29,035 nt of DNA, from the IMG/VR virus record IMGVR_UViG_2706794693_000005. One strand, written 5' to 3'. Shown one piece after another: positions 1,115-23,882 of the stretch. Source of the DNA: a virus. Lineage: Duplodnaviria > Heunggongvirae > Uroviricota > Caudoviricetes. Below the pieces are notes generated by a model, which saw nothing but the letters and a program-made list of their open reading frames with translations, did not search any database and had not been told where the DNA came from. The translations under genes were made by a program, and so were the position numbers. The first letter of the stretch is position 1; the number at the start of each line of letters is the position of its first letter.

Positions 1115-1653
1115 TTTACCCAACGAATACAGGAAAAAGCGGAGAACACCTTCGCCTCACCACGCTGGAAAGTGTCTGGATTCAGGGAAAACTACGTATG
1201 TGGGGGCGCTGGTCGTATATTGGCGGTGGCAGGTCAGGGAATATGTTCAATCAGTTGTTGGCATCCAAAAAACTGACGAAAACAGCCATTAATGAAGCCC
1301 TGCGCAGAATGAAAAAAGCGGGAATAGAGAAAGCTGAGCTGGAAGCGTTTTTGCGAGAGATGATCAACGGCAAGCAAAAGAGCTGGCTGGCGCATTGTAC
1401 TGATGCAGAGGCGTTATGTATTGATCGAGTCATAAGTGAGGTGCTGGCAGAGCATCCAGGATTGATTTGCATTCTCCGGCAACGCTATGAAGGGCGGGGG
1501 ATGACTAAGCGCAAAATGGCTGAATTGCTAAATGATGCACACCCAGAGTGGTGTTTTAGCACATGCGAAAAACGGATTGCTAATTGGTTAGCTGTTGCTG
1601 AGTATGCCCTATATATTCCCATGCGTGAATCATTTGCTGAGAAAATGGCTTGA
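1111..1653 (+). CDS. late-gene antiterminator Q-like protein
   Basis: 180 aa, last gene before a promoter/terminator pair and the lysis cassette. Contains the L-E-x-W-G-x-W style segment (LESVWIQGKLRMWGRWSYIGG) recalled from phage Q proteins. Family assignment by context and motif, not by search. Confidence 0.6.
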   Translation: MIYPTNTGKSGEHLRLTTLESVWIQGKLRMWGRWSYIGGGRSGNMFNQLLASKKLTKTAINEALRRMKKAGIEKAELEAFLREMINGKQKSWLAHCTDAEALCIDRVISEVLAEHPGLICILRQRYEGRGMTKRKMAELLNDAHPEWCFSTCEKRIANWLAVAEYALYIPMRESFAEKMA

Positions 1654-1690
1654 TTTCTTACGTATAAACTGCTTCAATTTTGCTATGCTT
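1650..1690 (+). promoter_or_regulatory. candidate PR'-like late promoter / Q-utilisation region
   Basis: TTGATT (1650-1655), 17-bp spacer, TTCAAT (1673-1678), and a second -10-like TATGCT at 1684-1689, immediately downstream of the Q stop and about 50-80 nt upstream of the terminator. Hexamers are weak matches; placement by analogy with lambda PR'/qut. Confidence 0.3.
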
Positions 1691-1733
1691 CGCAAAGCTG
1701 TATCGCGAGGCGGATTGCAGACATGGACATCGT

Positions 1734-1760
1734 AAAAAAACCGCTTAATGCGGTTTTTTT
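1734..1760 (+). terminator. rho-independent terminator (tR'-like), potentially bidirectional
   Basis: aaaaaaaccgc-ttaat-gcggttttttt: perfect stem flanked by an A7 tract upstream and a T7 tract downstream. Confidence 0.7.
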
Positions 1761-2650
1761 ACGTCAGGAAAGCAGGGGAGAATGCTGCTAGTTGGGCAAC
1801 TGGTCTTTCTGCTCCAAATTATAACAGAGACCAGTTATAGTTTCGGTGCTGTGTTTTTTTTACAATATTGTGATAACACATTGCTGGCGGGAGTTTTGAT
1901 ATTTCTTGGCAGGGGCTGATGATGCGTTATCCTGATGTCGTCAACTCATATAAAATGAGATGAGAGATCATTGCAGGGTGGTTTGTAATTCGCTGTTTAG
2001 NNNNNNNNNNNNNNNNNNNNNNNNNNNNNNNNNNNNNNNNNNNNNNNNNNNNNNNNNNNNNNNNNNNNNNNNNNNNNNNNNNNNNNNNNNNNNNNNNNNN
2101 NNNNNNNNNNNNNNNNNNNNNNNNNNNNNNNNNNNNNNNNNNNNNNNNNNNNNNNNNNNNNNNNNNNNNNNNNNNNNNNNNNNNNNNNNNNNNNNNNNNN
2201 NNNNNNNNNNNNNNNNNNNNNNNNNNNNNNNNNNNNNNNNNNNNNNNNNNNNNNNTGTATGATGAGTATTTTTTGTTTTCCTTTTTTCCAGTCATCTGAT
2301 GATGACCTGCTTCTTTTTAATCCGGATCGACATCAGTTTTTTAAGATAATTCCTGCGAGTTATATGCATAAATGCCACAAACTCCGCATTTTATGTGGTT
2401 GGGAGTTGCCGGGCGCGCAGTGAGTTTGCTAAGAAAACTCCTGCATGGTGAATCCCCCTGTGCGGTGGGGTGATACCATTAACCTTTTCTGTCGCCGACA
2501 GGTATCACGAACATTTTGTTCACCGGGAGGCACCCGGCACCATGCACTTCAATAGATTCTCTCCACATTATGGATATTCTTTCAGAATATCCCACGCAGA
2601 CTTTGTGTAAATGTTAACAAATGTGCGTTTTATTTGATCTGATTCGCTGT

Positions 2651-2680
2651 TTGAGCGTCCAAAACAACGGTATATATAAT
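2651..2680 (+). promoter_or_regulatory. sigma70-like promoter for the TolA-like lipoprotein cassette
   Basis: TTGAGC (2651-2656) and TATAAT (2675-2680) within a TATATATAAT run, spacer 16-18 bp depending on register. About 30 nt upstream of the GAGGA Shine-Dalgarno and the ATG at 2710. Confidence 0.5.
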
Positions 2681-2709
2681 CCTTTACTATATGACATATG
2701 TGAGGAAAA

Positions 2710-3138
2710 ATGGGTTTTCGTAGCGCATCAATTCTTACGTTGATTATTAGTGGGATTATTATCGGGTGCACTGATGCTGTATCGACAAATTATCATGACC
2801 GTACATCATATTACTCCGATAAAGCAATAGAGACACAGTATGTGAGTTCATCTGAACGTACTTCTGATGTTAGTGAGGATATCCGTCTGTATGCCCATCA
2901 AATCAAGAGCGCCATCGAAAAACAGTTCGGGGATGCGAGTAAGTATTCAGGAAAAGAGTGTACACTGAGAATGCATATGGCCCCGAATGGCCTTCTACTG
3001 GAGGTTAAAAGAGAAAGTGGAGACCTCGATTTATGTCGTGAAGCGATGAATGCGATAAAGAATGCTGATATACCTGCCCCCCCTTCGCCGGAAGTATATA
3101 AAGTATTTCAAAATGGGGTGCTGGATTTTAAACCCTGA
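2710..3138 (+). CDS. lipoprotein with TolA C-terminal (domain III)-like domain
   Basis: 142 aa; signal peptide with lipobox IIGC (Cys20). C-terminal ~85 aa (YAHQIKSAIEKQFGDASKYSGKECTLRMHMAPNGLLLEVKRESGDLDLCREAMNAIKNADIPAPPSPEVYKVFQNGVLDFKP) aligns closely with the recalled C-terminus of E. coli TolA (...YAGQIKSAIESKFYDASSYAGKTCTLRIKLAPDGMLLDIKPEGGDPALCQAALAAAKLAKIPKPPSQAVYEVFKNAPLDFKP). AT-rich codon usage; good SD. Confidence 0.8.
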   Translation: MGFRSASILTLIISGIIIGCTDAVSTNYHDRTSYYSDKAIETQYVSSSERTSDVSEDIRLYAHQIKSAIEKQFGDASKYSGKECTLRMHMAPNGLLLEVKRESGDLDLCREAMNAIKNADIPAPPSPEVYKVFQNGVLDFKP

Positions 3139-3288
3139 TATTTATTGTTTTGTAATAAACGGTTTCGGCTTAGGTTTGTTCTGACACAGCTACGGCACTG
3201 AGCTAAATTTAGCGGATAGTCAGCTCTGAGCCAGTGGCGGACGTAACAACTACTATTGCTGAGATTTTAATGGATTGAGGAGCAAGAA

Positions 3289-3684
3289 GTGGGATTAAAG
3301 AAAATCGTTATGTTGACTTTTTGGGTCGGTTTTGTTGCGGGATGCACACCTTTACACCCTTCAGATTGCCACAAAACTACTGCTACAGGTAGTTGCAGTT
3401 CAGGACGCTGGGATGATCAGGATGAATGGGGGGCGCAAGCGCGGGGAATCAGAGCTGCAATTAATGCCAAACTTGATGAGCCGCATAACTGGAAAGGGAA
3501 AAAATGCAGGTTGCATATGGAATTCTCTCAGGATGGCACGGCGTTAAAAATATCTACCAGTAACGGTGATAAAGCCTATTGCGAAGCGATAAAGTCCGCA
3601 GCTCATAAAGCCAAATTTCCGGCCTTCAACAATCCGGAAGTCTACAGAGATTTTCAGAAATCTGGCTTTGACATGCGAGGTTAG
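3289..3684 (+). CDS. second lipoprotein with divergent TolA domain III-like C-terminus
   Basis: 131 aa, GTG start 8 nt after a GAGGA SD; lipobox VAGC (Cys19). C-terminal part keeps the GK-C-L...DG...GD..C...AK.P...VY..F pattern of TolA-III (KGKKCRLHMEFSQDGTALKISTSNGDKAYCEAIKSAAHKAKFPAFNNPEVYRDFQ). Confidence 0.7.
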   Translation: MGLKKIVMLTFWVGFVAGCTPLHPSDCHKTTATGSCSSGRWDDQDEWGAQARGIRAAINAKLDEPHNWKGKKCRLHMEFSQDGTALKISTSNGDKAYCEAIKSAAHKAKFPAFNNPEVYRDFQKSGFDMRG

Positions 3685-3809
3685 CTCTTCAATTACTATA
3701 TCTCATTCATAGCAAACTGACAGATTTGATGATGTTCTATATACGAAACCTGTGATGTCAAGTCTGAGCTAATACAAATAAACATAATATCAGAGAAATA
3801 CATTTTATT

Positions 3810-3833
3810 AGCTCGCTACGGCGAGCTTTTTAT
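3810..3833 (+). terminator. rho-independent terminator closing the lipoprotein cassette
   Basis: agctcgc-tacg-gcgagct stem-loop followed by TTTTTAT. Confidence 0.6.
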
Positions 3834-3935
3834 ATTGCATCGTCTCCAGCATATATATCAATTAAGGCTCTGATTGATGTGTCTGAAAGCCTACACATAA
3901 TAACTATGCCATCCGTTCCGTGCGGAGGTGAGGCT

Positions 3936-4151
3936 ATGAAATCCATGGACAAAATTTCAACAGGCATTGCCTACGGCACCTCCGCAGGCAGTGCTGGCTA
4001 CTGGTTTTTACAGTTGCTCGATAGAGTAACTCCGTCACAGTGGGCTGCAATCGGTGTGCTGGGTAGTCTGGTATTTGGCCTGCTGACGTACCTGACAAAC
4101 CTTTATTTCAAGATTAAAGAAGATAAGCGCAAGGCTGCGAGAGGTGAATAA
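3936..4151 (+). CDS. S: class II holin (pinholin, phage 21 S-type) with dual start
   Basis: Translation from the ATG at 3936 gives [71 protein letters not shown] (71 aa), matching the recalled S21 pinholin including the MKSM/MDK dual-start motif. GGAGGTGAGG SD upstream. The longer ORF from the GTG at 3879 is judged an artefact. Confidence 0.85.
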
Positions 4152-4774
4152 TGCCTCCATCATTACGAAAAGTCGTTGCTGCTGCTATTGGTGGCGGAGC
4201 AATTGCTATAGCATCAGTGTTAATCACTGGCCCAAGTGGTAACGATGGTCTGGAAGGTGTCAGCTACATACCATACAAAGATATTGTTGGTGTATGGACT
4301 GTATGTCACGGGCATACNNNNNNNNNNNNNNNNNNNNNNNNNNNNNNNNNNNNNNNNNNNNNNNNNNNNNNNNNNNNNNNNNNNNNNNNNNNNNNNNNNN
4401 NNNNNNNNNNNNNNNNNNNNNNNNNNNNNNNNNNNNNNNNNNNNNNNNNNNNNNNNNNNNNNNNNNNNNNNNNNNNNNNNNNNNNNNNNNNNNNNNNNNN
4501 NNNNNNNNNNNNNNNNNNNNNNNNNNNNNNNNNNNNNNNNNNNNNNNNNNNNNNNNNNNNNNNNNNNNNNNNNNNNNNNNNNNNNNNNNNNNNNNNNNAC
4601 GTGGGTGCTGGCAATTTCAGAACATCGACGCTTCTTCGCAAAATAAACCAGGGCGATATCAAAGGCGCATGTGATCAGCTACGTCGCTGGACATATGCTG
4701 GCGGTAAGCAATGGAAAGGGCTGATGACCCGTCGTGAGATTGAGCGTGAAGTCTGTTTGTGGGGGCAGCAATGA
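4151..4774 (+). CDS. R: SAR endolysin (phage 21 R-type lysozyme), interior masked by Ns
   Basis: N-terminus [27 protein letters not shown] is a Gly/Ala-rich signal-arrest-release segment; C-terminus [57 protein letters not shown] matches recalled R21. Start overlaps holin stop; stop overlaps Rz start (ATGA). The catalytic middle lies in the 4319-4598 N block. Confidence 0.85.
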
Positions 4775-5235
4775 GCAGAGTCACCGCGATTATCTCCGCT
4801 CTGGTTATCTGCATCATCGTCTGCCTGTCATGGGCTGTTAATCATTACCGTGATAACGCCATTACCTACAAAGCCCAGCGCGACAAAAATGCCAGAGAAC
4901 TGAAGCTGGCGAACGCGGCAATTACTGACATGCAGATGCGTCAGCGTGATGTTGCTGCGCTCGATGCAAAATACACGAAGGAGTTAGCTGATGCGAAAGC
5001 TGAAAATGATGCTCTGCGTGATGATGTTGCCGCTGGTCGTCGTCGGTTGCACATCAAAGCAGTCTGTCAGTCAGTGCGTGAAGCCACCACCGCCTCCGGC
5101 GTGGATAATGCAGCCTCCCCCCGACTGGCAGACACCGCTGAACGGGATTATTTCACCCTCCGGGAACGACTGGTAATGATGCAGGCCCAACTTGAAGGTG
5201 CTCAGCAATACATAACCGAGCAGTGTTTAAAGTAA
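4771..5235 (+). CDS. Rz: Rz inner-membrane spanin (i-spanin)
   Basis: From the ATG at 4771: [29 protein letters not shown]..., N-terminal TM plus coiled-coil periplasmic domain, near-identical to recalled lambda Rz. The track start at 4759 is a GTG extension. Confidence 0.85.
4991..5176 (+). CDS. Rz1: Rz1 outer-membrane lipoprotein spanin (o-spanin), embedded in +1 frame within Rz
   Basis: 61 aa, lipobox VVGC, proline-rich mature part ([22 protein letters not shown]); near-identical to recalled lambda Rz1. Lies entirely inside Rz in the +1 frame. Confidence 0.8.
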
Positions 5236-5259
5236 AATCTTAACTACAATATGATTCAN

Positions 5260-6843
5260 NNNNNNNNNNNNNNNNNNNNNNNNNNNNNNNNNNNNNNNNN
5301 NNNNNNNNNNNNNNNNNNNNNNNNNNNNNNNNNNNNNNNNNNNNNNNNNNNNNNNNNNNNNNNNNNNNNNNNNNNNNNNNNNNNNNNNNNNNNNNNNNNN
5401 NNNNNNNNNNNNNNNNNNNNNNNNNNNNNNNNNNNNNNNNNNNNNNNNNNNNNNNNNNNNNNNNNNNNNNNNNNNNNNNNNNNNNNNNNNNNNNNNNNNN
5501 NNNNNNNNNNNNNNNNNACTTTCGTTATATTTTTTTGCATTGGTGGCGGAGCGTGGTATACAACTAAGAAATCTGGCATTCAATTACGTACCCGTGATGG
5601 GTTTATTATAATTGTAATGTTTTGGATTTTGTTTTCTGTTATTAGTGCATTCCCTTTATGGATTGACTCAGAACTTAATTTAACGTTCATTGATGCTCTG
5701 TTTGAAGGGGTTTCTGGAATAACAACAACAGGAGCAACTGTAATTGATGATGTTAGTTCATTACCTCGGGCATATTTGTACTATCGGTCACAGTTAAATT
5801 TTATAGGTGGTTTAGGAGTTATTGTTCTGGCGGTTGCAGTATTGCCATTATTGGGTATTGGTGGTGCAAAGCTTTATCAGTCAGAAATGCCGGGGCCATT
5901 TAAGGATGACAAACTCACTCCCCGCCTGGCCGATACGTCACGGACACTGTGGATAACTTATTCTTTATTAGGTATTGCTTGTATTGTCTGTTATAGACTT
6001 GCAGGAATGCCTTTGTTTGATGCTATTTGTCACGGGATTTCCACAGTTTCGCTTGGTGGTTTCTCAACTCATAGCGAGAGTATCGGATATTTTAATAACT
6101 ATTTGGTTGAGCTGGTGGCTGGTTCTTTTTCCCTGCTATCGGCTTTCAACTTCACTCTTTGGTATATTGTTATTAGCAGAAAAACGATAAAACCTTTAAT
6201 CAGAGATATTGAACTTCGTTTCTTTCTGTTAATAGCCTTAGGGGTGATCATTGTTACCTCTTTCCAGGTCTGGCATATAGGTATGTATGACTTGCATGGA
6301 AGTTTTATTCATTCGTTTTTTCTTGCCAGCTCCATGCTCACTGATAATGGTTTAGCTACGCAGGATTATGCAAACTGGCCCACGCACACGATAGTGTTTT
6401 TGCTGTTGTCAAGTTTCTTTGGGGGATGTATAGGTTCAACCTGTGGTGGAATTAAGTCACTTCGATTTCTTATACTTTTCAAACAAAGCAAACACGAGAT
6501 AAATCAGCTTTCTCATCCCAGAGCGTTGTTGAGTGTAAATGTAGGAGGGAAGATAGTTACAGATCGTGTAATGAGGTCTGTATGGAGTTTCTTTTTTCTT
6601 TATACTCTCTTCACGGTGTTTTTTATACTGGTGTTAAATGGTATGGGATATGATTTTCTTACATCATTTGCAACAGTGGCTGCATGTATTAATAATATGG
6701 GATTAGGTTTTGGGGCTACTGCATCGTCATTCGGAGTGCTTAATGACATTGCAAAATATTTAATGTGCATAGCTATGATTCTTGGTCGCCTTGAAATTTA
6801 TCCTGTTATTATATTGTTTTCAGGTTTTTTTTGGCGCTCCTAA
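5260..6843 (+). CDS. trkG: TrkG potassium uptake protein (TrkH/TrkG family), start hidden in N block
   Basis: Visible 441 aa from 5518 (TFVIFFCIGGGAWYTTKKSGIQLRTRDGFIIIVMFWILF...ILGRLEIYPVIILFSGFFWRS) matches recalled E. coli K-12 Rac-prophage TrkG essentially residue for residue. Multi-pass membrane protein, strongly AT-rich. True start lies inside the 5260-5517 mask; 5260 is an outer bound. Confidence 0.85.
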   Translation, partial: XXXXXXXXXXXXXXXXXXXXXXXXXXXXXXXXXXXXXXXXXXXXXXXXXXXXXXXXXXXXXXXXXXXXXXXXXXXXXXXXXXXXXXTFVIFFCIGGGAWYTTKKSGIQLRTRDGFIIIVMFWILFSVISAFPLWIDSELNLTFIDALFEGVSGITTTGATVIDDVSSLPRAYLYYRSQLNFIGGLGVIVLAVAVLPLLGIGGAKLYQSEMPGPFKDDKLTPRLADTSRTLWITYSLLGIACIVCYRLAGMPLFDAICHGISTVSLGGFSTHSESIGYFNNYLVELVAGSFSLLSAFNFTLWYIVISRKTIKPLIRDIELRFFLLIALGVIIVTSFQVWHIGMYDLHGSFIHSFFLASSMLTDNGLATQDYANWPTHTIVFLLLSSFFGGCIGSTCGGIKSLRFLILFKQSKHEINQLSHPRALLSVNVGGKIVTDRVMRSVWSFFFLYTLFTVFFILVLNGMGYDFLTSFATVAACINNMGLGFGATASSFGVLNDIAKYLMCIAMILGRLEIYPVIILFSGFFWRS

Positions 6844-6980
6844 TATATGGCTGATTTATAATTGTGAGTTTAATATTATGTTGACTCACTCATTGATCCA
6901 ATACCTAACTTTACCAGCAACACCTCCGCCCCCAGTAGCACTGGCTGCTGGGGTGCGTTTTATTCATAAAGCAAGGCTGT

Positions 6981-7769
6981 ATGAGCGAGAAATTAAAGAT
7001 AGTCTATCGCCCATTACAAGAATTGTCACCGTATGCGCACAACGCCAGGACGCACAGTACTGAGCAGGTGGCACAACTGGTAGAAAGTATTAAGCAATTC
7101 GGCTGGACTAATCCGGTGCTGATTGACGAAAAGGGCGAAATTATTGCGGGTCACGGTCGTGTTATGGCGGCTGAAATGCTCAAAATGGATTCTGTTCCGG
7201 TCATTGTTCTGTCTGGCCTGACGGATGAGCAGAAAAAGGCGTACCGCCTGGCAGATAATCGCCTGCCGATGAATGCTGGCTGGGATGAAGATCTGTTGCG
7301 GATGGAGCTGTCGGACCTAATCAATGCTGATTTTGATGTCTCCCTGACAGGCTTCATCCCGGCAGAAATTGATGAACTGTTGACGGATGTTTTGCCCGGT
7401 ACAGGAAATGAGGAGGAGCCGTATACGACGAAAATTGATACGCCTGTTTATGAGCCGTCAGGCGGTAAACCGGATATCAGTGAACTGTACGACGATACGA
7501 AAACTCAGGAGCTGATCAGCCGGATACGTTCGGCGTCCCTTGATCCTGATATTGAGAAATTCCTCCTGTGTGCAGCAGAACGTCACACGGTGTTTAATTT
7601 CAGCAGAATTGCGGACTATTACGCTCATGCCCCCGCTGAAATTCAGTGCCTTTTCGAGGAGTCGGCGCTGGTGATCATTGATTATCAGCAGGCTATTGAA
7701 AATGGATTTGTCCGAATGACGCAGCGCATGGTGGAGATCATGCATGGCGGGGAGGAGGAATATGCGTGA
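6981..7769 (+). CDS. ParB-like nuclease-domain protein (YnaK-like)
   Basis: 262 aa; N-terminal region (YRPLQELSPYAHNARTHSTEQVAQLVESIKQFGWTNPVLIDEKGEIIAGHGRVMAA) has the ParB/sulfiredoxin N-terminal-domain pattern including the GxxR segment. Acidic C-terminal half. Follows trkG as ynaK does in K-12 Rac (recollection). Confidence 0.65.
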   Translation: MSEKLKIVYRPLQELSPYAHNARTHSTEQVAQLVESIKQFGWTNPVLIDEKGEIIAGHGRVMAAEMLKMDSVPVIVLSGLTDEQKKAYRLADNRLPMNAGWDEDLLRMELSDLINADFDVSLTGFIPAEIDELLTDVLPGTGNEEEPYTTKIDTPVYEPSGGKPDISELYDDTKTQELISRIRSASLDPDIEKFLLCAAERHTVFNFSRIADYYAHAPAEIQCLFEESALVIIDYQQAIENGFVRMTQRMVEIMHGGEEEYA

Positions 7770-8694
7770 TGATTTTTGCGCCTTTATTCTGACTCACGGG
7801 CGACCGGACAAAGTTCTGACTTACCGGACGTTGCGTCGTGCTGGCTATACCGGGAAAATTTTTATCGTTGTTGATGATGAAGATAAGACACGGCATCAGT
7901 ACATGGCTGAATTTGGTGAACAGGTGCTGGTATTTTCCAAAGCCGATATTGCTAGTCGTTTTGACGAAGCCGATAATTTTAGTGACCGCCGCTCAATTTT
8001 TTACGCCCGTAATGCCTGTTTCGACCAGGCAAAACTGGTCGGGTGTAAATACTTCATTCAGCTCGATGATGATTATCACGAGTTCCAGTTTCGGGTGGAT
8101 CGCAACTATGACCAGGCCTATTTCCCGATAAGGAAACTGGATGAGATCCTTTCTGAAATGCTTGCGTACTACGAATCAATACCTGCTCTTTCCATCGCTA
8201 TGTCGCAGGGCGGGGATTTTCTTGGTGACAATGGCGGCCATGCTTCGTGGGTGAAACGCAAGGCAATGAACAGCTTTATCTGTTCGGTTGATCGACCGTT
8301 CTCATTCATGGGGCGCATTAACGAGGATGTGAATACGTACACGAATCTCGGTCGCTGTGGTGAATTGTTTATGACGATCGGTGCTGTCCAGTTAGGGCAG
8401 AAACAGACGCAGAAAAACAGCGGCGGAATGACCGAGCTGTATCTGGATTCCGGAACCTACGTTAAAAGTTTTTACTCCGTCATGTATGCGCCGTCGTGCG
8501 TAAAAATCTCACTTATGGGTGCCAGTCATAAACGCATTCACCATCAGGTCACCTGGAACAACGCTGCAGTAAAAATCCTTCACGAAAAATACAGGAAGAA
8601 GACACCCTGCATATCAATGGGGGTGACAAATGATTCCGTATTCGAAAGTCGAGTCTCTGGCAGCGTGCCGGATGACTGCACAACAAATCGCTGA
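7744..8694 (+). CDS. GT-A-fold glycosyltransferase-like protein (DxD motif), function unknown
   Basis: 316 aa, no TM segments. Order of motifs matches GT2-type enzymes: FCAFILTHGRPDK (compare IPTYNR), IFIVVDDEDK, then YFIQLDDDYHEF with DDD at residues 108-110. Start overlaps the ParB-like gene by 26 nt. Assignment is by motif inspection only. Confidence 0.5.
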   Translation: MAGRRNMRDDFCAFILTHGRPDKVLTYRTLRRAGYTGKIFIVVDDEDKTRHQYMAEFGEQVLVFSKADIASRFDEADNFSDRRSIFYARNACFDQAKLVGCKYFIQLDDDYHEFQFRVDRNYDQAYFPIRKLDEILSEMLAYYESIPALSIAMSQGGDFLGDNGGHASWVKRKAMNSFICSVDRPFSFMGRINEDVNTYTNLGRCGELFMTIGAVQLGQKQTQKNSGGMTELYLDSGTYVKSFYSVMYAPSCVKISLMGASHKRIHHQVTWNNAAVKILHEKYRKKTPCISMGVTNDSVFESRVSGSVPDDCTTNR

Positions 8695-8884: not shown

Positions 8885-9979
8885 ATGAGCAGACCGGACT
8901 GGGGGGCGTTGCAGCAGGAGTATATTGCTGAATACACCCGCTCCGGTATATCTCCGGTGGCATGGTGTGAAGCAAGGGGACTGAATTACGCAACAGCCCG
9001 TCGTTACATCAAAAAAACTCCGAAAAATGCGCAGACAGAAATGTGCAAAACTGCGCAAAAAAGTGCGCAGAAAAAATCTGCGCAGACTGCACAAAAGCGG
9101 AACGAAAAATCTCAGGAAAAAAAGCCAGTATTCGATGCGGGCCTGAATGAGGGCGACGCGGAGGAATTTTCGTTCTGTCCCGATGAATTCGGCATTTCTG
9201 ACCAGCAGGCTAAGTTTGCGATGCTTGTTGCTCAGGGTAAAAAGCCGACAGAGGCGTACCGACTAGCCGGTTATGAGGGGCAAGGTGCGACAGCTAACAG
9301 CAACGCCAGTCGTATGCTTAGAAATGCCAGGGTTTTTCGCGCTATCAGCTACTTCCGCAATCAGTACCAGAAACGCTATACCGCAGACCTGGATTTACTA
9401 GTGAGTCAGTTGATGGCTATTGTCCTGGCCGACCCCAATCAGCTTGCACAATTTCGCCGTGTTAACTGCCGTTATTGCTGGGGCGAGAATCATCTCTACC
9501 AGTGGCGCGATATAGCAGAATTCGACAAGGCAGCGGCGCAGGCTTCCAGAGATGGCAAACCCGAACCGGAATATGGAGGCCTCGGCTTTGTTGATAACGC
9601 CATACCCAATCCGGACTGCCCGAAGTGCTGCGGTGAGGGAACGGGACAGCTTTATATGGCTGATACCACTCTGCTTGATGGGGATGCGCGGCAATTATAT
9701 GCAGGGGCAAAATTCGGAAAATTCGGCGTTGAGATCCTGCTGGAGGATAAGGCTGCCGCCCGGCGTGAATTGTTGCGTTTGTTTTCTGCTGGCGGGGCTT
9801 TATGTGCAGATAAGCGGCTACGGGAACTGGAAATTGAACGGCGCAGAATGGAAAACCAGAAGCTGCGCAAAGAGATCGAAACGGTGGAAGATAATGAACA
9901 TCCCCAGCCTGTGGCGATCAATATTAATGTGGTTGATGCCAGAGTAAGGAGTGATGAAGATGATCTCTCCGACGCTTAA
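8885..9979 (+). CDS. terminase small subunit with N-terminal HTH, Lys-rich linker and Cys-rich C-terminal extension
   Basis: 364 aa immediately upstream of and overlapping the large terminase. Residues ~95-160 (SDQQAKFAMLVAQGKKPTEAYRLAGYEGQGATANSNASRMLRNARVFRAI) resemble the Terminase_2-type small-subunit core. N-terminal HTH-like segment; CRYCWG...CPKCCG zinc-ribbon-like pairs. Confidence 0.6.
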   Translation: MSRPDWGALQQEYIAEYTRSGISPVAWCEARGLNYATARRYIKKTPKNAQTEMCKTAQKSAQKKSAQTAQKRNEKSQEKKPVFDAGLNEGDAEEFSFCPDEFGISDQQAKFAMLVAQGKKPTEAYRLAGYEGQGATANSNASRMLRNARVFRAISYFRNQYQKRYTADLDLLVSQLMAIVLADPNQLAQFRRVNCRYCWGENHLYQWRDIAEFDKAAAQASRDGKPEPEYGGLGFVDNAIPNPDCPKCCGEGTGQLYMADTTLLDGDARQLYAGAKFGKFGVEILLEDKAAARRELLRLFSAGGALCADKRLRELEIERRRMENQKLRKEIETVEDNEHPQPVAININVVDARVRSDEDDLSDA

Positions 9980-11263: not shown

Positions 11264-12572
11264 ATGGCTGATATATCAACACCCAACCTCGACTATAACG
11301 ATATGCTGGAGGCGTGGGATATTAACGACGCACTGATGGGCGGTACGCTTGAAATGCGCAGGCAGGGGGAAAATTATCTCCCAAAATGGCCTAACGAAGA
11401 TGAAGACGCTTATAAAAAACGCCTGTCTGTGGCTACGCTACTTCCTGTGTATGAAGAAAGCATCAAGCAAAATATTGGGCGCATATTTGCAGAGCCGACA
11501 GTATTGAGTGAGGAAACGCCGGCAAAAATCAGGGAATATGNNNNNNNNNNNNNNNNNNNNNNNNNNNNNNNNNNNNNNNNNNNNNNNNNNNNNNNNNNNN
11601 NNNNNNNNNNNNNNNNNNNNNNNNNNNNNNNNNNNNNNNNNNNNNNNNNNNNNNNNNNNNNNNNNNNNNNNNNNNNNNNNNNNNNNNNNNNTAAAAGAGG
11701 TCATCATTATTGATGGTGATGATTTCGGGCAGAAGAAGGTGGAGCAGATCCGCCATATTATGCCCCGTCGAGTTGAAATTTATCGACGTAGCGAAGGCAC
11801 TAATGGCGAATCTGTCTGGACGCTTCATGAGTCATGGAATACCAGCCGTGATGATATTCCTCTGGTAACACTGTACACGAAGAAAACAGGATTTATGCGT
11901 GGTACACCGCCATTGCTTAATCTTGGCTTGCTGAATATCAAGCACTGGCAAAGCCAGAGCGAGCAGGACAATATTCTTCATGTTGCCCGCGTTCCATTGC
12001 TGGTGGCCTACGGGCTGGACAGGAATGAAGAACTGACGGTTGGTGCATCCACCGCTACGATTTTTGAGGACAGAACAAAAAATGGCCTCGAATATGTTGA
12101 ACATAGTGGCGCAGCGATAGAATCTGGCGAAACATCACTTGAGAAGCTGGAAAATCAGATGCGTCATGCCGGCGCTAAACTTCTGCGTGCTGAAAATACA
12201 TCCACCAAATCTGTTGATCAGACTAATGAAGAGCGAATGCAGGAAAACTCGCCGCTTTATACAATGGCGAACTCCCTCGAAGATGCCCTCGATAATATTC
12301 TCCAGATAATGGCGGAATGGATCGGAGAGAGTTGCGGTGGCAATGTGGATGTGCGCACTGAACTGGATGTATCTGCCCAGGTGTTTGACTCATCCTCCGC
12401 GCTGGCTGTTCAGTCATTGCGTCAGGGCGGTGATATACGTCAGATTGATGCGGTTCGGGTGTTGCAGGCGTTGAAATTTATCGATCAGGATTCCCGTCCA
12501 GAGGAAGTGATCGATGAATTAAAAAATCAGAGTGTAATGCTGATGGAAATCAATGATGCAAACCGTGAATGA
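11264..12572 (+). CDS. portal protein (interrupted by N block 11541-11691)
   Basis: Positioned between large terminase and the Mu-F-like head morphogenesis gene. The two visible parts are in different frames across the mask, so the mask evidently does not preserve original length. Assignment by gene order and size only. Confidence 0.55.
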
Positions 12573-23083: not shown

Positions 23084-23781
23084 TGCAGGACATACAACAG
23101 GAAACGCTGAATGAATGCATTCGTGCGGAGCAGTCGGCCAGCGTGGTGCTCTGGGAAATCGACCTGACCGAGGTAGGCGGGGATCGCTACTTTTTCTGCA
23201 ATGAGCAGAACGAGAAAGGAGAGTCTGTCACCTGGCAGAGTCGGCAGTATCAGGCCTATCCCATTCAGGGGAGTGGATTTGAGATGAACGGCAAAGGTGC
23301 CAGTGCAAGGCCAACGCTGAAAGTCTCTAATCTGCACGGCATGGTCACCGGGATGGCGGAAGACCTGCAGAGTCTGGTCGGCGGAACGGTGGTCAGGCGT
23401 AAGGTTTACGCCCGTTTTCTGGATGCGGTGAACTTCGTCAACGGAAACAGTGACGCCGATCCGGAGCAGGAGGTGATCAGCCGCTGGCGTATTGAGCAGT
23501 GCAGCGAACTGAGCGCGGTCAGTGCCTCCTTTGTACTGTCCACGCCGACGGAAACGGACGGCGCTGTTTTTCCGGGGCGCATCATGCTTGCTAATACCTG
23601 CACCTGGACCTATCGCGGTGATGAGTGCGGTTATCACGGTCCGGCTGTCGCGGATGAATATGACCAGCNNNNNNNNNNNNNNNNNNNNNNNNNNNNNNNN
23701 NNNNNNNNNNNNNNNNNNNNNNNNNNNNNNNNNNNNNNNNNNNNNNNNNNNNNNNNNNNNNNNNNNNNNNNNNNNNNNNNN
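23083..23781 (+). CDS. L: minor tail protein L (lambda gpL family), 3' end hidden in N block
   Basis: Visible 195 aa ([33 protein letters not shown]...ANTCTWTYRGDECGYHGPAVADEYDQ) near-identical to recalled lambda gpL, including the C-terminal Cys cluster region. End coordinate estimated from lambda L length (232 aa). Confidence 0.85.
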
Positions 23782-23882
23782 NNNNNNNNNNNNNNNNNNN
23801 NNNNNNNNNNNNNNNNNNNNNNNNNNNNNNNNNNNNNNNNNNNNNNNNNNNNNNNNNNNNNNNNCCGGAGGAGTATTTCCGG

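Follow-up and report, generated by a model that had tools for sequence, protein, structure and literature searches.

What would two small lipoproteins, each built on a domain of the host import protein TolA, do for a prophage that carries them just ahead of its lysis genes? The question is raised by positions 2651-3833 of a stretch of 29,035 nucleotides (nt) assigned to the Caudoviricetes (IMG/VR record IMGVR_UViG_2706794693_000005), referred to here, at its full length, as the window. Gene annotation and profile searches identify the setting as a lambdoid prophage. A first-pass annotation, made from the sequence without database searches, had described two open reading frames (ORFs) in this region, ORF1 and ORF2, as a cassette of lipoproteins resembling the C-terminal domain III of host TolA (TolA-III), on which many colicins and filamentous phages dock in the periplasm. 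Both products do combine a lipoprotein signal with the TolA-III fold, and both domains are under purifying selection. The most economical reading is that they would serve as outer-membrane-tethered decoys for Tol-dependent bacteriocins and for the pIII protein of filamentous phages, and we put the probability of this at about one half.

Two lipoproteins with a TolA domain III

The two genes and the parts of their products, in amino acids (aa), are as follows; RBS is the ribosome-binding site and pLDDT the predicted local distance difference test score.

2710-3138, + strand: ORF1, 142 aa; RBS GAGGA at 2702-2706; signal peptide MGFRSASILTLIISGIIIGC
2710-2769, + strand: ORF1 lipoprotein signal peptide, aa 1-20; lipobox IIGC, Cys20 at 2767-2769
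2770-2871, + strand: ORF1 tether, aa 21-54; disorder predicted, pLDDT <50
2872-3138, + strand: ORF1 TolA domain III, aa 55-142, plus stop codon
3289-3684, + strand: ORF2, 131 aa; GTG start; begins MGLKKIVMLTFWVGFVAGC
3289-3345, + strand: ORF2 lipoprotein signal peptide, aa 1-19; lipobox VAGC, Cys19 at 3343-3345
3346-3432, + strand: ORF2 N-terminal extension, aa 20-48, TPLHPSDCHKTTATGSCSSGRWDDQDEWG; contains an extra cysteine pair
3433-3684, + strand: ORF2 TolA domain III, aa 49-131, plus stop codon; 31% identity to E. coli TolA-III

Both proteins match the Pfam family for TolA's C-terminal domain (PF06519; gathering score 25 bits), ORF1 with E 2.4e-23 and 82.6 bits and ORF2 with E 1.3e-14 and 54.6 bits. 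Searches with phmmer against the TolA chains of the PDB gave E 5e-28 and 5e-9, respectively. AlphaFold2 modelled confident domains at residues 55-142 of ORF1 and approximately 40-131 of ORF2 (block-mean pLDDT ~80-96), preceded by low-confidence N-terminal parts (approximately 1-52 in ORF1 and 1-38 in ORF2; pLDDT <50). In Foldseek comparisons the ORF1 model superposed on the solved TolA-III structure 2x9a_B with a root mean square deviation (rmsd) of 0.6 Å at 60% identity, and the ORF2 model on 3qdp with 1.1 Å at 31% identity and a template modelling (TM) score of 0.92. The likeness to TolA-III that the first-pass annotation had described, and for which it had proposed profile searches and structural comparison, is thus significant for both ORFs by either route. 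The disulfide cysteine pair of the domain is present in each protein and invariant among relatives (C84/C109 in ORF1, C73/C98 in ORF2).

Neither protein is a full-length TolA. Against the NCBIfam model NF007065/PRK09510, which requires at least 213 bits, ORF1 scores 107.8 and ORF2 53.7 bits. This whole-protein cut-off demands the N-terminal membrane anchor and the helical domain II, and the matches are confined to profile positions 293-386 of 387, the C-terminal quarter. ORF1 clears a second TolA equivalog, tolA_full (75.6 vs 59.45 bits), through its C-terminal third only. As the NCBIfam matches are limited to the C-terminus, ORF1 and ORF2 are modules of TolA domain III that lack domains I and II and have been re-anchored as lipoproteins. 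They also both match phrog_5772 ('unknown function') from end to end (E 1e-62 and 7e-65), and RefSeq names ORF2 'cell envelope integrity TolA C-terminal domain-containing protein'; these are labels of homology, which carry no function.

The lipoboxes IIGC and VAGC, with Cys20 and Cys19 as lipid-modified residues, conform to the pattern [LVI][ASTVI][GAS]C and lie where the first-pass annotation had placed them. In E. coli, Asp at position +2 after the lipid-modified Cys keeps a lipoprotein from being sorted to the outer membrane by the Lol system. The +2 residue is Thr in both ORF1 and ORF2, and sorting to the outer membrane is therefore predicted for both.

The ORF1 domain is 60% identical to residues 334-421 of E. 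coli TolA, which is the closest full TolA among those compared; ORF1 ends in VYKVFQNGVLDFKP and TolA in VYEVFKNAPLDFKP. An origin as a recent fragment of E. coli tolA was ruled out, the identity of the domain being merely 60%. Its ratio of non-synonymous to synonymous substitution rates (dN/dS) is 0.09-0.24 at dS 0.2-0.46, and that of the signal peptide and tether (aa 1-54) is 0.5-0.8, which indicates relaxed constraint on the latter. Divergent relatives (65-74% identity) retain the length, Cys20 and the domain; the signal peptide differs, with its hydrophobic region kept. PGAP/RefSeq call ORF1 a tolA pseudogene, 'incomplete; missing N-terminus'. Since the domain is under purifying selection, this label is considered an artefact, produced because the TolA model is only partly covered. 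Apparent annotation artefacts of this kind (2710-3138 in the window; 6279-6539 in L001, an unmasked genome identical to the window across 2600-3900) recur in hundreds of genomes.

ORF2 has an RBS, GAGGAG, at 3277-3282, with the GTG 6 nt further on. RefSeq/PGAP start the gene at an internal ATG at 3310, which likewise looks like an annotation artefact affecting hundreds of genomes; the GTG is favoured because ORF2 homologues start MG-x-KKIV. The N-terminal extension follows a pattern that is near-invariant across genera, CxPLHPSxCHKTTATGSCSSGRWDDQDEWG. Its extra cysteine pair lies in CHKTTATGSC, which is followed by SSGRWDDQDEWG, and it is conserved as strongly as the folded domain: dN/dS is 0.02-0.08 in most comparisons (0.24 against Serratia) for the extension and 0.06-0.13 for the domain. 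AlphaFold2 leaves most of the extension unmodelled. Compared with plasmid and chromosomal copies, ORF2 as a whole has dN/dS 0.04-0.16 at dS 0.5-1.4, and its lineage is old and strongly constrained. The motif SGRWDDQDEWG was considered as a TolB box of the colicin E9 type and dropped as unsupported; in the alignment its second Trp falls opposite TolA Tyr340, where helix 1 begins, and its first Trp is missing in more distant relatives.

Ligand surfaces and the decoy proposal

The TolB N-terminus, colicin N and the N1 domain of g3p all dock on the beta3 strand of TolA (A415-K420) by beta-strand addition. D418 and K420 are critical, binding being lost in D418P and K420P, and such mutants without TolB binding show a full tol phenotype (PMC4339652). 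Colicin A uses the opposite face of TolA, namely the strand L375-P380 together with K368, K379 and K396 (PMC3365938). These residues were mapped onto the ORFs through the alignments from the phmmer searches against PDB TolA chains:

Terminal beta3 strand: TolA APLDFKP; ORF1 GVLDFKP; ORF2 SGFDMRG
Colicin A strand (L375-P380): TolA LLDIKP; ORF1 LLEVKR; ORF2 ALKIST
K368 position: TolA K; ORF1 H89; ORF2 E78
K379 position: TolA K; ORF1 K100; ORF2 S89
K396 position: TolA K; ORF1 K117; ORF2 H106

ORF1 thus retains two of the three colicin A-contact lysines and ORF2 none, and D139 and K141 of ORF1 correspond to D418 and K420. By these residues ORF1 mimics TolA faithfully on both faces, and ORF2 does not mimic its colicin A face.

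Host TolA shares its fold with both ORFs (0.6-1.1 Å rmsd) and also the disulfide pair; in ORF1 the final beta3 strand, LDFKP, is the same as in TolA and most of the colicin A face is preserved. TolA differs in how the domain is held. The ORFs carry it behind a lipoprotein signal on a short tether, an arrangement that would place the domain on the opposite membrane, and as they lack the inner-membrane anchor (domain I) and the long helical domain II of TolA they would be unlinked to the TolQR motor.

If the decoy proposal is correct, two independent accessory genes (morons) would each supply one small lipoprotein, destined for the outer membrane's inner leaflet, from which a flexible tether of 30-35 residues would suspend TolA domain III in the periplasm. 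The tethered domain would still present the beta-strand-addition surfaces of TolA and, lying just beneath the outer membrane, could catch ligands ahead of inner-membrane TolA. Because it is unconnected to the TolQRA motor, it would be unable to energise import. Candidate ligands are the translocation domains of group A bacteriocins, pIII's N1 domain and possibly the TolB N-terminus, and the predicted outcome is a lysogen tolerant of Tol-dependent bacteriocins and filamentous phage. ORF1 is the close mimic of E. coli TolA-III; ORF2, of a different and older type with a conserved N-terminal motif of its own, probably has another ligand range.

The proposal is supported by the fold, by the retention in ORF1 of the LDFKP strand, the colicin A strand (LLEVKR vs LLDIKP), K379 and K396, by the lipoprotein signals that recur among related short proteins, by purifying selection on both domains, by the presence of ORF1-type genes at the moron position, from Q to the holin gene, of several lambdoid backbones, and by the promoter-like site and terminator on either side of the cassette. 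Overproduction of TolA-III in the periplasm reportedly leads to colicin tolerance (Levengood-Freyermuth, Click and Webster, J Bacteriol 1993). Periplasmic pIII-N1 sequesters TolA and produces tolerance of colicin A and a 4-log fall in phage uptake (PMC10424213). The logic shared with these cases is competition for the contact between TolA-III and its ligand. They concern laboratory constructs or the phage's own protein, whereas the genes considered here are natural and their product would be an additional TolA-III anchored in the outer membrane.

Distribution, transcription and neighbourhood of the two genes

The exact cassette was recovered from 774 of the 5426 complete E. coli genomes; strain K-12 lacks it. 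Two parts of the first-pass annotation did not survive wider comparison, namely the description of ORF2 as a divergent copy of ORF1 and the treatment of the two genes as a pair. ORF1 and ORF2 are two independent modules, each occurring alone elsewhere, so that pairing is not obligatory; they are 27% identical, and ORF2 represents a separate, ancient and strongly constrained lineage. A recent tandem duplication of ORF1 to give ORF2 was ruled out by this low identity, by the occurrence of each gene alone and by the nucleotide identity of ORF2 to copies elsewhere, given below.

ORF1-type genes without ORF2 (91% and 66% protein identity) occur in other lambdoid prophages between Q and the holin gene, beside Q genes that belong to two different families. 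This is the position occupied by stx in Shiga toxin (Stx) phages. For the 91% type, nucleotide homology covers 2333-3139, including the promoter region, and ends exactly at the ORF1 stop codon; in P0007-type loci, homology to the window likewise begins at 2333. The 66% type has just 2764-3139 in common with the window and a different signal peptide, still of the lipoprotein kind. A larger mosaic module, 2422-4152, spans the cassette plus the holin gene; phage mEp460 shares it, and it is found in at least two lambdoid backbones. In a tblastn search of the phage collection with ORF1, mEp460_ev081 was the sole match.

Relatives of ORF2 share the coding sequence only (approximately 3252-3687), with 79.7-87.6% nucleotide identity by blastn to the plasmid, Citrobacter and Enterobacter copies. 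The gene is present at ~87% nucleotide identity on approximately 600 plasmids. On I-complex conjugative plasmids it lies directly 3' of the relaxase gene, in a backbone slot before trbCBA; in two such loci, L003 and L012, it occupies 5995-6426 and 7995-8426. On the virulence plasmid pO157 of enterohaemorrhagic E. coli (EHEC) it lies upstream of toxB (5995-6426 in locus L132, NZ_CP018248.1). Enterobacter and Citrobacter carry a single chromosomal copy in a non-phage neighbourhood, which is not syntenic between the two. Overall, the ORF2-type gene was found in at least 12 genera of Enterobacterales, and was absent from E. coli chromosomes outside prophages.

A wider class of related proteins exists. 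A profile search of 1.84 billion representatives produced 594 matches; among the best of these were 78 proteins of 100-170 aa, 58 of them with a lipobox-like motif and a signal peptide. None of the 58 lipobox-bearing cluster representatives has Asp at +2. Short TolA-III lipoproteins fall into 58 clusters or more, most with two cysteines and a TolA-like end, FKNxxLDF[KR][PL]; the ORF2 type, ending FQKSGFDMRG, is an outlier. Among the database members, some are cut short or joined to pieces of insertion sequences.

With ORF1 as tblastn query, 1307 plasmids were matched, 660 of them from Klebsiella. These include CloDF13-like Klebsiella plasmids of 10-12 kb, on which the genes for a cloacin-type bacteriocin, its immunity and lysis proteins adjoin a TolA-III lipoprotein gene (lipobox region …LLLTAC…, end NAPLDFRP). 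This gene overlaps another for a Sec-secreted TonB C-terminal domain, so that the pair mimics both bacteriocin import hubs; an example is found at 9206-9939 of locus L134 (NZ_CP044260.1). The same genes have been mentioned merely as 'TolA and TolB family proteins' (PMC10269471). On Klebsiella IncFIB/FII plasmids (5229-6258 of locus L136, NZ_CP079684.1), a further TolA-III lipoprotein gene, with lipobox LITAC, comes after one whose product has a thioredoxin fold.

The occurrence of relatives on I-complex plasmids, and the pairing with a TonB-domain gene on cloacin plasmids, provide new contextual support for the decoy proposal. Hosts of I-complex plasmids are targets of the I-pilus filamentous phage IF1, whose g3p has been solved in complex with TolA-III (PDB 2x9a). 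A broader and more tentative suggestion is that mobile elements of the Enterobacterales carry a widespread, unrecognised set of 'import-hub decoys', in which outer-membrane copies of TolA-III, and the TonB C-terminal domain of the cloacin plasmids, would intercept bacteriocins and pIII. ORF1 and ORF2 would then be two decoys stacked in one prophage, with differing ligand ranges, and the plasmid copies would shield pilus-bearing hosts from pilus-specific filamentous phages.

Signals that may govern transcription of the cassette are the following.

2651-2680, + strand: candidate sigma-70-like promoter, TTGAGC-18-TATAAT; 10 of 12 consensus positions, the best site in 1600-4200
3181-3209, + strand: weak promoter-like site in the ORF1-ORF2 spacer, CTGACA-17-TAAATT; 9 of 12 positions
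3810-3833, + strand: intrinsic terminator in the gap between cassette and holin gene; 7-bp GC-rich stem, 4-nt loop and T-run

Nine promoter-like sites were counted in 1600-4200 compared with a shuffled mean of 6.2, which is not a clear enrichment. The 2651-2680 site is identical in mEp460 and 77 fetched loci; P0007-type loci have TGTAAT as the -10 hexamer. No terminator was predicted between ORF1 and ORF2, and co-transcription of ORF2 from 2651-2680 is therefore equally possible. The hairpin at 3810-3827 with its T-run has a folding energy of -13 kcal/mol (z = -4.2), and no equally stable fold was seen in 200 shuffled sequences. Of the promoter and terminator claimed in the first-pass annotation, the terminator thus holds, and the promoter stands as a consensus match only. 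Expression of the cassette in the lysogen is plausible.

Five runs of masked bases (N) interrupt the window (2001-2255, 4318-4598, 5259-5517, 11541-11691 and 23669-23864). The first covers a region that is legible in L001 (5437-5513), where a promoter-like site and a strong terminator, equivalent to window positions ~2036-2065 and ~2093-2112, are probably pR' and tR'. As the cassette is downstream of these, it would also fall within the late operon, and Q-dependent read-through into it is likely as well.

Profile matches and annotation agree with the first-pass annotation in placing the cassette between Q and the lysis genes:

225-824: DUF1367 gene, upstream of the cassette
824-1114: YbcO gene, upstream of the cassette
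1111-1653: Q-like gene (DUF1133; the Phage_antitermQ match is weak)
2413-2599, + strand: STnc100-like RNA element (Rfam RF02076; 86.6 bits, gathering score 47)
3936-4151, + strand: P21-type holin gene (essD), the first lysis gene (Pfam PF04971, E 2e-35)
between the holin and Rz/Rz1 genes: endolysin gene
4759-5235 and 4991-5176: Rz and Rz1 (spanin) genes, downstream of the endolysin gene

The cassette is also, as first described, richer in AT than its surroundings, with a GC content of ~40-46% compared with ~48-53% in the Q and Rz flanks. A lambdoid moron would have its own promoter and terminator, a deviant base composition and a patchy presence among related phages; here a terminator, a reduced GC content and mosaic boundaries are seen, and the promoter is a consensus match. 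The STnc100-like element is immediately 5' of the cassette and travels with ORF1 in other prophages. In one related locus (L018), three STnc100 copies of ~200 nt surround the ORF1-type gene (5704-5877, 6599-6803 and 6854-7061). Such repeats may be recombination joints, or transcribed leaders of the accessory genes between Q and the lysis genes. The spacer between Q and ORF1 contains no tRNA genes in the window; related loci hold 2-4. A weak, sub-threshold match to IsrK, a small RNA of Gifsy prophages, is found just 3' of the Q-like gene (1687-1760, + strand; 21.6 bits, gathering score 50). Directly 3' of Rz/Rz1 the prophage carries a full-length gene for the potassium transporter, trkG (5251-6843), followed by a ParB-like gene of the ynaK type (6981-7769), a layout resembling the cargo of Rac.

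Competing explanations and wider relevance

A number of observations weigh against the decoy proposal. The promoter of the cassette is known as a consensus match, and the position downstream of the probable pR'/tR' places the genes in a late-transcribed region too. An EHEC prophage gene equated with TolA by its authors was induced 32-fold by ciprofloxacin (PMC11125564), its membership in the ORF1/ORF2 family being unconfirmed. The conservation of ORF2 across genera (dN/dS ~0.05) and its non-phage chromosomal sites are better explained by a conserved cellular partner than by an arms race, and the lysines that contact colicin A are missing from ORF2. TolB, too, would be bound by a TolA-III decoy, which could impose a tol-like cost on the envelope. 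In addition, neither protein matched a defence model of PADLOC-DB 2.0 at E up to 0.01.

Some of these observations would suit a physiological modulator of the envelope, a role concerning mainly ORF2 and later borrowed by mobile elements. A lipoprotein of this kind, with TolA-III at the outer membrane and a conserved disulfide loop near its N-terminus, would partner with a conserved host protein, for example TolB, Pal or some other donor of a beta-strand. It would tune Tol-Pal or outer-membrane homeostasis, or, when plasmid-borne, aid conjugative transfer. The single-copy chromosomal gene in stable non-phage neighbourhoods of Enterobacter, its range of at least 12 genera, the very strong constraint that extends to the N-terminal extension, and the I-complex backbone slot between the relaxase gene and trbCBA are all consistent with this. 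It is nevertheless an unlikely explanation: E. coli chromosomes lack the gene except in prophages, Citrobacter and Enterobacter copies are not syntenic, and the gene recurs on three kinds of mobile element and adjoins bacteriocin genes.

Still less likely is sabotage of Tol-Pal in the late phase, with the genes transcribed together with the lysis genes from pR' under Q. Free TolA-III would titrate the TolB N-terminus from TolA and uncouple the outer membrane from the wall, thereby helping outer-membrane disruption, vesicle release or the timing of lysis. The cassette is immediately 5' of the holin gene, moves with it as module 2422-4152, and lies downstream of the probable pR'/tR'. ORF1 retains the strand to which TolB binds, loss of TolB binding in TolA D418P/K420P gives a full tol phenotype (PMC4339652), and the ciprofloxacin-induced 'TolA' gene would fit if it belonged to the family. 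However, ORF2-type genes reside on chromosomes and on conjugative and bacteriocin plasmids without a lysis cassette, and terminators separate ORF1-type genes from the lysis genes. Most lambdoid phages, moreover, lyse without such genes, and spanins are already encoded at 4759-5235. That ORF1 is a non-functional tolA remnant, its pairing with ORF2 incidental, is very improbable: the PGAP label and the truncated or fused database members would fit, but ORF1 has an unbroken frame, served by an RBS of its own and encoding a lipoprotein signal, the domain is constrained (dN/dS 0.09-0.24 at dS 0.2-0.46), relatives of 65-74% identity keep length, Cys20 and domain despite a different signal peptide, and an identity of merely 60% to host TolA excludes a recent fragment.

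The decoy proposal also has parallels. Cor (phi80/N15), Llp (T5) and TraT, small lipoproteins of the outer membrane, come from accessory genes that phages or plasmids carry. They shield the carrier from incoming phages or toxins by blocking receptors such as FhuA and OmpA. ORF1 and ORF2 are likewise small lipoproteins from accessory genes, their outer-membrane site and protective role being proposed from sequence. The proteins are unrelated in sequence, and whereas Cor, Llp and TraT block the receptor, the ORFs would imitate a periplasmic co-receptor.

A search of the full-text literature found no functional characterization of these genes, in agreement with the first-pass annotation, which had known of none. 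The homology to TolA is already visible in database names; what is new is that mobile elements have apparently re-anchored a host hub domain on the opposite membrane. With regard to annotation, the gene that RefSeq lists as a 'tolA pseudogene' across hundreds of genomes encodes an intact lipoprotein and is under selection. The findings bear on how a promiscuous hub such as TolA-III can be copied without crippling Tol-Pal, on colicin ecology and on host defence by mobile elements. They also bear on bacteriocin and phage therapeutics, since decoys would affect agents of the cloacin and klebicin type and vectors derived from M13. If ORF1 and ORF2 are indeed decoys, an unnoticed protection against Tol-dependent bacteriocins and filamentous phages would be present in roughly every seventh sequenced E. 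coli strain, and pO157, hundreds of I-complex conjugative plasmids and the Klebsiella cloacin plasmids would be protective likewise.

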